Origin: Escherichia coli O157:H7
GTDB taxonomy: Bacteria; Pseudomonadota; Gammaproteobacteria; Enterobacterales; Enterobacteriaceae
Reading direction: 5' to 3' (one strand)
Assembly (NCBI RefSeq): GCF_013167455.1
Contig: NZ_CP038328.1
DNA length: 64,000 bases
The position numbers were made by a program, and so were the translations under genes. This document shows, piece after piece, positions 55,339 through 58,926 of the stretch. Position 1 is the first letter of the stretch, and every line of letters begins with the position of its first letter. The notes under the pieces were generated by a model, which was not told the DNA's origin, made no database searches, and worked only from the letters and a program-made list of their open reading frames with translations.

Positions 55339-55653
55339 TTATCTTTTTTTGAAAAAAATTAAGATAAGAAAAAGAACAATATTTGTTACAGGAAATCCCC
55401 CCAAAACTCCCCAGTACTTACTCCATCCTAGAGACATCGTATATCTACCAAGGATTTGACAAAACCCAAAACTTAACCCTATACCTATACTTCTTAAATT
55501 TAATGTCGTAGTCAGGCTTAAAATAAATAGAACAAGGATGGTAATAGCCCACCACAATAACCATGCCTTAACAAAATCAGATTTTTTGCTGTAAGGTTCT
55601 TTACCCAAGAACAACTGCCAAAAGTTACCATTTCCCATATAGAATCCATTCAC
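55339..55653 (-). CDS. Hypothetical small membrane protein (104 aa, about 3 predicted TM helices)
   Basis: Open frame in very AT-rich DNA where stops are frequent by chance; hydrophobic segments AWLLWWAITILVLFILSL, IGIGLSFGFCQILG, VTNIVLFLILIFF; no family assigned. Confidence 0.55.
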   Translation of the reverse strand: MNGFYMGNGNFWQLFLGKEPYSKKSDFVKAWLLWWAITILVLFILSLTTTLNLRSIGIGLSFGFCQILGRYTMSLGWSKYWGVLGGFPVTNIVLFLILIFFKKR

Positions 55654-55776
55654 CCAAGATATTGTTTATAGAATAAAAATACATTCCAATTATATTTAAT
55701 TAAAATATACCCCATCAATAAAAACTTACACACTCTAAATTACTACTGTATAGTTATCAATGCAAAGACTGCTATA

Positions 55777-55794
55777 TTGCATATATATATGCAA
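55777..55794. promoter_or_regulatory. Perfect 18-bp palindrome in divergent promoter region
   Basis: TTGCATATATATATGCAA is its own reverse complement; lies between the divergent 104-aa and 128-aa ORFs. Confidence 0.4.
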
Positions 55795-55853
55795 ACCACA
55801 TAATTCAGGTAATATATATTCAAAACAATTATATATATAAAACAATGTAAAAA

Positions 55854-56240
55854 ATGTTCAAATCATCCATCAGAAATATATTCTACCCATCCAAGCTTGA
55901 GCGTTTATCACGCTTTCAGTTCATAATCTATACATTAACATCATGGTCAATATTAATAACTTTGAATGATATCAACCTGGCTTTGAGTTTTATTCTGGTT
56001 ATTAATAATACCTATGTAAATATCAATATTGGAGCAAAAAGAATAAGAGATACTGGATGTAAGGCAATCTACTTTGTATTGATTTCATTGGGTTTGACAC
56101 TTTTTTCTATTATCTCTGCAGCAATTGAAGGGGTGAGATGTGAGTCATTAAGCGTCCAACTCAACGTGGCATGGATATTATTCACAACAATTATGTTATC
56201 TGCGATTCCCTCTGCTAAAATGTCGCTGTCAGCACACTAA
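55854..56240 (+). CDS. Hypothetical inner-membrane protein, DUF805(YhaH)-like (128 aa)
   Basis: ORF in AT-rich DNA; motifs LERLSRFQF and KRIRDTGCKA resemble the DUF805 signature (GRxxRKEYW ... RRLHDxxxSG) from memory; several TM segments. Confidence 0.6.
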   Translation: MFKSSIRNIFYPSKLERLSRFQFIIYTLTSWSILITLNDINLALSFILVINNTYVNINIGAKRIRDTGCKAIYFVLISLGLTLFSIISAAIEGVRCESLSVQLNVAWILFTTIMLSAIPSAKMSLSAH

Positions 56241-56264: not shown

Positions 56265-56409
56265 TTACAGCCAGTTCTTGCGCTTAAAGTACAGATACGG
56301 TGCCAGGCCCGCGAGGATCATAAAGATAATCGCGCCTGGGTAGCCGAAACTCCACTTCAGTTCTGGCATAAACTCAAAGTTCATGCCATAGCTGGAGGCA
56401 ATCGGCGTA
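56265..56409 (-). repeat. Duplicated 3' end of corA (gene fragment; direct repeat of 57976-58120)
   Basis: About 145 bp nearly identical to the genuine corA 3' end; encodes ...[44 protein letters not shown] in frame; identity decays toward the inner edge. Confidence 0.9.
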
Positions 56410-56597
56410 GGAAAAAGTTTCCTAATCGGTAAATTCAATATTTTGTTATTAACAATGAGCAAGACCAATCATTAACGACGTTCTCTTCAGAGATGTAATG
56501 AAAAAATGTGAAGTGTACTTCTTTTTTAAATATTTTTTTACCCTAGCATTTGTTCTCAAATTGATATTGAGCTTAAATATAACCAAGGAAAATGTAA

Positions 56598-57446
56598 ATG
56601 AATAACACATTACTTCCATCAATTAATATTCCCTGTACACTTTTCGAAACTATTAGTTTATTTGATAATTATTCTGCTGATGATATGCAATATGGTGATA
56701 TGGTAGAACAAGATTTTCTCTCACTCGGCCTAAGCGATATCTCAGCAAAAGTTGATCCTTACAGACTTATTAAATACCATTTCCCTGGCCCAGGTTCTAT
56801 TAATGTTGCTTTTAGTGCCTCAAGTTCCGGAACAAAAATATCACAACGTGAATGCACTGATATTTTATTTGCAGAAATGAAAGAACTAGCAAAAATGTTT
56901 TCCTTTTTTGGACAATATAAAACACTTATCGAAGATCTGATTGAACATTTTAGATATGGAAATGGCAGCAATTTTCATAGCCAACAATTAAATTTATCTT
57001 TTCATGAAAAAATAAATAAATATGGTTATAATAGTCCAATACGAATAATCAAAGAATGTATCGAAAATGGCATTAATTCAACTCCCTCGACAGGATACCA
57101 ACCTCTTATCCTGCAAAGCATTAAAACCAAATTACTTTCATCAAGACTAAATAAATTTAATGACTTCGAGGACAGTTTTAATGGCTTAGGAATCAGTGTT
57201 CATGATATTTCAGCTCAAAAAATATCTCTTTTAAGTTTTCAAAAATACGCTATAGGATGGAGTGCAACAATTCATTTTGTAGCACAGGACCACTTCGGTC
57301 TTGATGTAACTGATATCAAAAACAAGACTTACAGCAAATATAGATTTTTTCGCATATGGTTCTTTTTACAACGGCATAAAGACTTTGCTTTCAAACCTTT
57401 TTTCACCAATTTTAACACTATCGAAAGAATCGAAAATTATCTATGA
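56598..57446 (+). CDS. Hypothetical protein, 282 aa, no signal peptide, no recognised family
   Basis: 849-nt ORF in about 30% GC DNA (estimated by eye), which is improbable by chance; AAGGA SD 9 nt upstream of ATG; stop overlaps next ORF start (ATGA). Confidence 0.8.
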   Translation: MNNTLLPSINIPCTLFETISLFDNYSADDMQYGDMVEQDFLSLGLSDISAKVDPYRLIKYHFPGPGSINVAFSASSSGTKISQRECTDILFAEMKELAKMFSFFGQYKTLIEDLIEHFRYGNGSNFHSQQLNLSFHEKINKYGYNSPIRIIKECIENGINSTPSTGYQPLILQSIKTKLLSSRLNKFNDFEDSFNGLGISVHDISAQKISLLSFQKYAIGWSATIHFVAQDHFGLDVTDIKNKTYSKYRFFRIWFFLQRHKDFAFKPFFTNFNTIERIENYL

Positions 57447-57934
57447 AAAGCAAACTCCAAAAAATTATATTATGTTTATTTCTTCTATGCTGCATCTATA
57501 ATTTATGGACATTGCGTCCTGTACAGATTTTGTATACATACTCTGATGCTGGCAATTCAGTCTTTCTGGTCGTTGATCATCTGCCATGGACTGACAGCGA
57601 TAAAATAAATTGGTATCTGAAGCATCAGAATGAAATTAAAAATCAACATCCCCTACCAGAAGGTAGTTGGCATACCTGGTATGTCATTGATATCGGTAAT
57701 GGCTTCACTGACTATAAAAAATATATCGAAGGGCCGTATGAAGATCTCTACTGTTTCCCGACAATTAAGAGCAATGATAATTGCATCACGAAAAATTACT
57801 TAATGGTTATTAATGAATACCCTTATCGTAACACTCATATTGGTATTAACGATTTTACTGAGTATCAATTAACACAAGAAAATAAAATAGAGCAAGTTTT
57901 CAATCCGCATAACTTTAAAAAAGACAATTTTTAG
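57443..57934 (+). CDS. Hypothetical membrane-anchored or secreted protein, 163 aa
   Basis: N-terminal K-rich then hydrophobic stretch (MKSKLQKIILCLFLLCCIYNLWTL) typical of signal peptide/anchor; translationally coupled to upstream ORF; ends 41 nt before convergent corA stop. Confidence 0.75.
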   Translation: MKSKLQKIILCLFLLCCIYNLWTLRPVQILYTYSDAGNSVFLVVDHLPWTDSDKINWYLKHQNEIKNQHPLPEGSWHTWYVIDIGNGFTDYKKYIEGPYEDLYCFPTIKSNDNCITKNYLMVINEYPYRNTHIGINDFTEYQLTQENKIEQVFNPHNFKKDNF

Positions 57935-57975
57935 AAATAAGCCGGATAAAAAAATAGCTTTATCCGGCACTCATA

Positions 57976-58926
57976 TTACAACCAGTTCTTCCGCTTAAAG
58001 TACAGATACGGTGCCAGGCCCGCGAGGATCATAAAGATAATCGCGCCTGGGTAGCCGAAACTCCACTTCAGTTCTGGCATAAACTCAAAGTTCATCCCGT
58101 AGCTGGAAGCAACCAGCGTTGGCGGCAGGAACACGACGGATACCACCGAGAAAATTTTGATGATGCGGTTCTGCTCGATGTTGATAAAACCCATTGCCGC
58201 CTGCATCAGGAAGTTCACCTTCTGGAACAGGGATTCGTTATGCGGCAGCAGGGATTCGATATCTCGCAGGATTTCACGCGCCTGCTCCAGTTGCCCACCC
58301 GGTAAGCGTGCTTTACGTACCAGGAAGTTGAGCGCGCGCTGGGTATCCATCAGACACAGGCGCACTTTCCAGCCGATATCTTCCAGTTCCGCCAGAGTGG
58401 AGAGCGCCTCGTCGTACTCATCGCCCTGATGCCCTTCCATAATCACCCGGCTCAATTGCTCCAGGTCGCTATAGATATTTTCAATTTCATCTGCCAACTG
58501 TTCGATTTTGGTTTCGAACAGATCCAGCAGCAACTCGTAGGCGTTACCGTCTACCATCGACTGGCTACGGGCACGCATACGATACAGACGAAAAGCGGGC
58601 AGTTCACGCTCACGCAGAGTAAACAGACGACCATCACGGATGGTAAATGCCACAGTGGAGTTACCGGCGTGATCTTCCGCATCTTCAAAGAAGAAGAAGG
58701 AGTGAATATGCAGGCCGTCATCGTCTTCAAAGAAACGTGCCGATGCTTCGATGTCTTCCAGTTCCGGGCGGGTTGCCAGGCTCTGGCCAAGTTCAGATTG
58801 TACGCGCAGTCGCTCGTCGTCGTCCGGTTCGACAAGATCAATCCATACTGCATTTACAAGGGGTTGTGACTCTTCGACTTCCAGCCGGGTCAGTCGGTTA
58901 TTTTCCAGTTGAAATGCGCTCAGCAT
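57976..58926 (-). CDS. corA: Magnesium/cobalt transporter CorA
   Basis: [43 protein letters not shown]... with [10 protein letters not shown] signature near C-terminus; 316 aa. Confidence 0.96.

Follow-up and report, generated by a model that had tools for sequence, protein, structure and literature searches.

How does an Escherichia coli chromosome come to carry the last 147 nt of corA a second time, on the far side of a small gene cassette that adjoins the intact gene? An earlier note on the window, i.e., the whole stretch of 64,000 nt of E. coli O157:H7 DNA under study, had described a displaced 3' fragment of corA at positions 56265-56409. A repeat search returned a direct repeat with copies at 56265-56411 and 57976-58122, 1711 nt apart, such that the start given before was correct and the end fell 2 nt short:

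56265..56411, minus strand: 3' fragment of corA, the left repeat copy, a pseudogene comprising codons ~268-316 and the stop codon
57976..58926, minus strand: intact corA, 316 aa

Compared base by base, the 147-nt copies show 8 mismatches (94.6% identity), which, counted from the stop codon, lie at offsets 5, 15, 120, 123, 132, 137, 139 and 144. Between them extends a perfect run of 104 nt (56281-56384, offsets 16-119), and past offset 146 the agreement is at chance level (11 of 30 positions). The fragment is real and reads in frame to the stop codon, as had been claimed: its translation comprises 44 residues identical to CorA 273-316, through TAA, and the two distal differences between the copies, CGC/CGG at R311 and CTG/TTG at L315, are both synonymous. 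The 3-kb region of the window is 100% identical to O157:H7-type chromosomes, and in an identical RefSeq record (L001) the fragment is annotated as a pseudogene, 'CorA family divalent cation transporter, incomplete, missing N-terminus'. An ORF of 67 aa on the minus strand (56265-56468) contains the fragment; it starts with TTG directly after an in-frame TAA and TGA, and its predicted product would hold the GMN motif and TM2 of CorA.

The DNA between the copies, 1.56 kb in length, has a GC content of 31.5%, compared with 52% for corA. It holds only two ORFs, both on the plus strand, with the start of the second overlapping the first by 4 nt:

56412..56597, plus strand: non-coding cassette leader, whose homologous counterpart in the C-type loci defined below is the ~186 nt that precede DUF3289
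56598..57446, plus strand: DUF3289 / YPO3983-family protein, 282 aa (Pfam PF11692, 2e-84; TIGR03034, 6e-132)
57443..57934, plus strand: DUF943 membrane protein, 163 aa (Pfam PF06092, 2e-26)
57941..57968, minus strand: terminator-like hairpin directly after the intact corA stop, in the cassette-side flank, common to C-type loci

DUF3289 has been described as a colicin-M-like toxin that is active in the periplasm and neutralized by DUF943 (PMC11148199), and an orphan DUF3289 protein of Aeromonas jandaei is a proven T6SS effector (PMC12135965). By domain content and order, the pair in the window is predicted to be such a colicin-M-like toxin with its cognate immunity protein, of a T6SS effector family. 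PDB entries named 'DUF3289 family protein' match the window protein weakly, and PADLOC, run on the four local ORFs, returned no defence-system match.

Neither integrase nor transposase genes nor terminal inverted repeats were found in the insert, and a check of its ends for target duplications was negative as well. That the cassette was moved as a transposon or IS-mobilized unit, with the corA repeat as an artefact of the target site, might be thought of because IS1 and IS4 elements occur at the locus in some strains, but it is barely credible, since terminal inverted repeats are absent at 56412 and 57975, a duplication of 147 nt far exceeds any target-site duplication, and the copies are non-identical with an inner boundary that is not sharp. 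The sharply bounded, identical copies with terminal inverted repeats which the earlier note had named as the mark of a transposon are not seen. A plasmid or other mobile origin of the cassette was considered and rejected as well, because the plasmid matches covered corA only, apart from two mis-filed records of chromosome size.

A corA gene ~95% identical to that of E. coli also occurs on over 60 plasmids, among them many conjugative ones and many from Salmonella or E. coli; examples are R27 (NC_002305.1, 87328-87650) and pHCM1 (NC_003384.1, 2596-2918). On the chromosome of E. coli TW01221 (L015, 8248-11459), an IS1-corA-ysgD-yigE'-IS1 block adjoins glcA and resembles a composite transposon that carries a copy of the corA region.

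Across the comparison set of 5426 complete E. coli genomes, the rarD-corA interval takes five configurations:

Type A: rarD-yigG-yigF-corA; example K-12
Type B: rarD-hypothetical-128-aa ORF-corA; example 2014C-3011; uninterrupted in 52 of 5426 genomes
Type C: rarD-DUF3289-DUF943-corA, without the fragment; examples UTI89 and GPT24-01; 931 of 5426 genomes
Type D: type A plus corA'-cassette; examples L003, L017 and L018; included in the 1708 genomes with the junction
Type E: type B plus corA'-cassette; the window; ~1405 of 5426 genomes cover at least 80% of a 3-kb E-type query

Types D and E share the junction between corA' and the cassette, which 1708 of the 5426 genomes (~31%) possess. The C-type order recurs in Salmonella enterica subsp. 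arizonae and diarizonae (L008, 2882-6344; L011, 2882-6345), with a toxin that is 65% identical at the protein level; consequently the cassette must be old at this slot, and type C is not derived from type D or E. This distribution suggests that the presence/absence polymorphism of the rarD-corA slot is old and common to Escherichia and Salmonella. In a protein search, homologues were also found in Salmonella subsp. houtenae and salamae. The C-type leader is preceded on its left by ~120 nt that are without counterpart in the other types.

The C-type loci count against the idea that the cassette is a decayed integrative element, a prophage or island which entered at an attachment site in the corA 3' end and lost its integrase. 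In its layout the locus does resemble attL/attR duplications: an imported 3' end completes the gene, the displaced native end lies beyond the insert, and the GC content of the insert is low. On the other hand, no integrase, excisionase or phage gene is found in the insert or within ±8 kb, where the RefSeq annotation lists core genes only (xerC, ~7 kb from the insert, is a housekeeping gene). Moreover, the 931 E. coli genomes without the fragment have the cassette at an unchanged place with respect to the corA stop and with an identical 30-nt cassette-side flank, and the Salmonella subspecies likewise carry it at corA without a fragment. Finally, the limits of identity vary by strain with no fixed core, distal SNPs and core variants are not constant from one strain or copy to the next, and the inner boundary decays over 27 nt. 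An origin of this kind is very improbable.

To the left of the fragment, the window holds a resident segment of B type, which replaces yigG-yigF of K-12:

55339..56240: low-GC (32%) resident B-type segment
55339-55638, minus strand: hypothetical 99-aa gene
55854-56240, plus strand: 128-aa ORF, without annotation in the identical RefSeq record

The 128-aa ORF is a distant homologue of YigG (29% identity, E 3e-5, with a weak match to NCBIfam PRK11371); in Pfam, neither resident ORF gave a significant match. A 33-nt repeat, D2 (55416 / 56236; 73% identity, 11-mer seed), was treated as a chance occurrence. Decayed neighbours were seen in several strains (L003, 1691-2071 and 2835-3682; L017, 4201-5091; L020, 1574-2456), comprising an internal stop in yigG, a frameshifted DUF3289, and an internal stop or frameshift in rarD. 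Pseudogenes of this kind suggest relaxed selection on parts of the slot.

With the configurations in hand, each copy of the repeat can be assigned to an allele, along the lines of the alignment to other corA genes that the earlier note had proposed; the fragment has a B-type end and the intact copy a C-type end:

56265..56384, minus strand: distal part of the fragment, with no difference from the intact corA end in B-type genomes that lack the cassette
57976..58122, minus strand: right repeat copy, the 3' end of intact corA, matching the C-type allele

Offsets 0-119 of the fragment, together with 60 nt of downstream flank, equal the intact corA end of 2014C-3011, bar one SNP in the flank. The intact copy shows a single mismatch to C-type GPT24 over offsets -30 to +199 and carries C-type variants that include positions beyond the repeat (G123, C138, T144, C156, G159). 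Taken together, these matches identify the fragment as the resident corA end, whereas the intact 3' end would have come with the cassette from a C-type-like donor, a direction of transfer that we infer from the sequences. All variants within 56265-56384 are synonymous and stem from the functional allele pool; over codons 273-316 the fragment departs from K-12 at four positions, all synonymous and all found in intact corA genes. The earlier proposal of a functional, allelically different corA as the source is borne out by the match to 2014C-3011, but the distal SNPs are not specific to the fragment: both sites are standing corA polymorphisms, the intact copy having G..G in 13P460A, L006, Oki and 'C cow', and Salmonella corA having G at the first of them. 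Among 13 intact copies, the last 51 codons vary synonymously only, with one exception. Fragments in other strains have acquired private nonsynonymous changes (A304T, S288G, N313H), as expected of a pseudogene.

The cassette is itself a mosaic when set against type C (L002). Over window positions 56412-57300, which take in the leader and ~235 codons from the start of DUF3289, the divergence amounts to 10-18%, whereas over 57300-58122 the last ~48 codons of DUF3289, the whole of DUF943 and the corA end are almost identical. That present C-type DNA departs so far from the cassette, throughout the leader and ~700 nt from the start of the toxin gene, counts against the origin favoured below. A protein search for a donor of the divergent left part found no foreign source: toxins with at least 96% identity came from E. 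coli only, the C-type allele stood at 85%, Salmonella and others at 66% or below, and one metagenomic contig at 78% had too little left flank. A scan of species representatives likewise gave no closer donor of the left part.

What remains is the joint between corA-derived DNA and the cassette, at about 56411/56412, and the stretch of the fragment that adjoins it:

56385..56411, minus strand: old inner edge of the scar, where 6 of 27 nt differ from the intact copy

In 8 of 8 D/E loci read, edge and joint are identical, with GGAgGCAAtc[c/g]GCGTaGG on one side and AAAAAGTTTCC on the other, although the DNA to the left of this shared junction contains either yigF (L003, L017, L018) or the 128-aa ORF (window, L019, L020). 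One junction sequence in two left-hand backgrounds implies that it arose once and was later moved by homologous recombination. A search for the same junction elsewhere, which the earlier note had recommended, succeeded on a large scale: a 181-nt junction query was matched in a single piece by the 1708 genomes, in ~340 of them with at least 99% identity to the window's junction, and the recurrence of the structure excludes an assembly artefact, an explanation which that note had allowed for. Its view of the decaying inner edge as an old junction without an att site agrees with a single degenerate junction whose identity limits vary by strain. In contrast, the corA 3' end does not qualify as the recombination or integration hotspot for which it had been taken, since one junction and one cargo type are found in 5426 genomes; what varies is the rarD-corA intergenic slot, exchanged by homologous recombination. 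Candidates for other cargo flanked by corA fragments were rejected, as the two-place genomes checked (H21, H40) are IS1 or IS4 rearrangements. A perfect palindrome, TAGGAAA-AAG-TTTCCTA (56408-56424; 7-bp arms, 3-nt spacer), lies exactly on the corA'/cassette junction.

The edge is more diverged than the rest of the fragment. Codons 268-272 carry the variants CCT268, L270P (L270R in other strains), V271I and GCC272, which are private in that none of them occurs in the intact corA genes sampled, 13 from E. coli and 2 from Salmonella. This amounts to ~5 changes in 5 codons, far above the ~3% that neutral drift gives elsewhere in the oldest fragments, and the excess has to be accounted for separately: the edge may be much older, the donor corA may have been divergent, or the joining may have been mutagenic. 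Two of the changes are synonymous and one is conservative, so that the original donor corA may itself have been divergent. Neither the species-representative scan nor the protein search found a donor corA with the edge variants. At the joint, the nearest available donor-like sequence has 69% identity over the first 26 nt and is too divergent for a call on microhomology.

That the repeat has consequences to this day is illustrated by O157:H7 strain Z1835, in which the B-type flank and the distal SNPs of the fragment are fused to the interior of the window's intact corA. Relative to the window exactly 1711 bp are missing and the flanks are otherwise identical, which is the expected product of a crossover inside the 104-nt perfect core. 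Z1835-like genomes account for 7 of the 52 cassette-free B-type genomes. Judged from these sequences, the repeat still appears to work as a recombination substrate that deletes the cassette precisely. This deletion product, like the anatomy, the allele identities and the shared junction, is directly observed; the assignment of gains and losses, with Z1835 as a probable loss, follows from parsimony.

These observations are likely, and we hold this with good confidence, to reflect one old illegitimate joint combined with a homologous crossover in corA, after which the module was spread and refreshed by homologous recombination. C-type DNA (rarD-DUF3289-DUF943-corA) would have entered, by recombination, a chromosome in which corA was followed by other genes, and the resident corA 3' end would have been pushed aside to become the fragment. 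One end of the incoming DNA would have engaged in homologous recombination within corA, while the other, ~186 nt upstream of the toxin gene, would have formed an illegitimate joint ~147 nt inside the corA 3' end. The product would be L-corA'(147 nt)-cassette-corA, with corA kept whole by the imported 3' end and terminator. Thereafter the module may have moved among backgrounds, with the fragment (or rarD) and corA serving as arms. The bulk of the fragment would have been replaced repeatedly by functional alleles, by re-displacement or gene conversion, while the last ~27 nt, too near to the end of homology for exchange, would have retained the oldest and most diverged sequence. Like the reason for the edge decay, the type of illegitimate event is inferred, and two routes may be envisaged: integration of a recircularized fragment by a single crossover, or homology-facilitated illegitimate recombination. 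The layout L-a'-X-a-b is that expected of a single crossover between a circle (X + a) and chromosomal a-b. Among 60 insertions obtained by E. coli conjugation with homology on one side, 56 arose from single crossovers of recircularized DNA and had duplicated 109-950 bp of the homologous locus, and 4 were true homology-facilitated illegitimate recombination (PMC3240628). The C-type variants that lie immediately outside the repeat in the window would be explained better by a linear-fragment event whose homologous crossover fell deeper in corA; the signal separating the circular from the linear sub-mechanism is blurred by later recombination. A donor that has a near-identical cassette leader left of the junction did not come to light, and the original event is beyond reconstruction.

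The perfect core admits a second reading, according to which the fragment is equally old throughout and owes its 104 nt of identity to gene conversion by the adjacent intact corA rather than to re-displacement. Offsets 16-119 are indeed identical in both window copies, and the intact copy of 13P460A equals the window fragment over offsets 0-119, such that conversion from a copy of that type would give the same result. The distal SNPs of the fragment differ from its present neighbour, however, and match cassette-free B-type genes together with their 60-nt flank, which renders this course of events unlikely. It can be regarded as a variant of the illegitimate joint followed by homologous exchange, because both need exchange with functional alleles that cannot extend to the inner edge.

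Could the fragment also serve a purpose? It might act as a recombinase-free handle for gain and loss of the cassette and run antisense to corA, and the 67-aa ORF could disturb the CorA pentamer, a set of functions that we regard as quite improbable. If it held, the cassette could enter any naive E. coli by two homologous crossovers within corA sequence and be removed precisely via the repeat. Any transcript that reads into the cassette from its left side would include 147 nt in antisense orientation to the corA mRNA 3' end, 104 nt of them perfect, and cassette expression could thus be coupled to the Mg2+ transporter. Independent of any such role, the locus is a natural example of a small competitive-weapon cassette gained beside a gene of essential function without mobile-element machinery, whose scar would then drive both its spread and its precise loss. 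It also accounts for a pseudogene annotated in ~1700 complete genomes and yields a simple, PCR-testable presence/absence polymorphism within O157:H7. A search of a literature library found no paper on the locus.

With respect to its cargo, the window pair resembles the orphan DUF3289/DUF943 pairs in domains, gene order and the overlapping gene for a small membrane protein, and like them it is without linkage to T6SS structural genes; toxicity, immunity and T6SS delivery are features of other members of the family, which the window pair, known from its sequence, may share (PMC11148199; PMC12135965). Displaced 3' ends are established for rhs, CDI and Vibrio T6SS modules (Kirchberger et al. 2017, PMC5361080). 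Those loci and the corA locus are alike in that an incoming effector-immunity module displaces a resident 3' end which survives downstream as an orphan. At corA, by contrast, the displaced end belongs to a housekeeping neighbour and not to the toxin gene, and an equivalent corA end is imported, such that no new protein variant results. C-terminal displacement with orphan 3' ends in rhs/CDI-type loci was reportedly treated by Jackson and co-workers in 2009. In Huaxiibacter chinensis and Trabulsiella guamensis (L010, 4001-5918; L012, 4001-8451), the DUF3289-DUF943 pair has further DUF943 genes and orphan C-terminal fragments of DUF3289 (aa 215-281 and 242-281) behind it, an arrangement that represents displacement-type immunity arrays within the family. 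The boundary of the cassette mosaic in the window lies close to the start of the orphan toxin pieces in these other genera.

A displaced end at an attachment site is known from E. coli K-12, where e14 or phage 21 leaves a 3' pseudogene of icd. Both at icd and at corA, an imported 3' end with synonymous variants keeps the gene whole, and the native end becomes a pseudogene beyond the insert. The corA locus differs in having no integrase, att core or phage genes, in its cargo of 1.5 kb, and in the presence of the same cargo at the same slot also without duplication.

Close counterparts are the single-crossover (Campbell-type) insertions, which likewise display one-sided homology, a flanking direct duplication, one illegitimate joint and no dedicated recombinase (PMC3240628). 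Those insertions were rare laboratory products, at ~1e-9 or fewer per recipient, whereas the corA locus is natural, ancient, fixed in ~31% of E. coli and since moved by homologous recombination. The related homology-facilitated illegitimate recombination goes back to de Vries & Wackernagel 2002 and Prudhomme et al. 2002, as these are cited in PMC3240628. At corA, the repeat derives from the adjacent gene, one copy is continuous with intact corA, the cargo adjoins corA without duplication in type C, and a repeat-mediated deletion product is present. In all these respects the locus fits the known class of duplication-flanked insertions formed by homologous and illegitimate recombination; it is a real but ordinary recombination scar that involves no new mechanism, and its cargo belongs to a known effector-immunity family.
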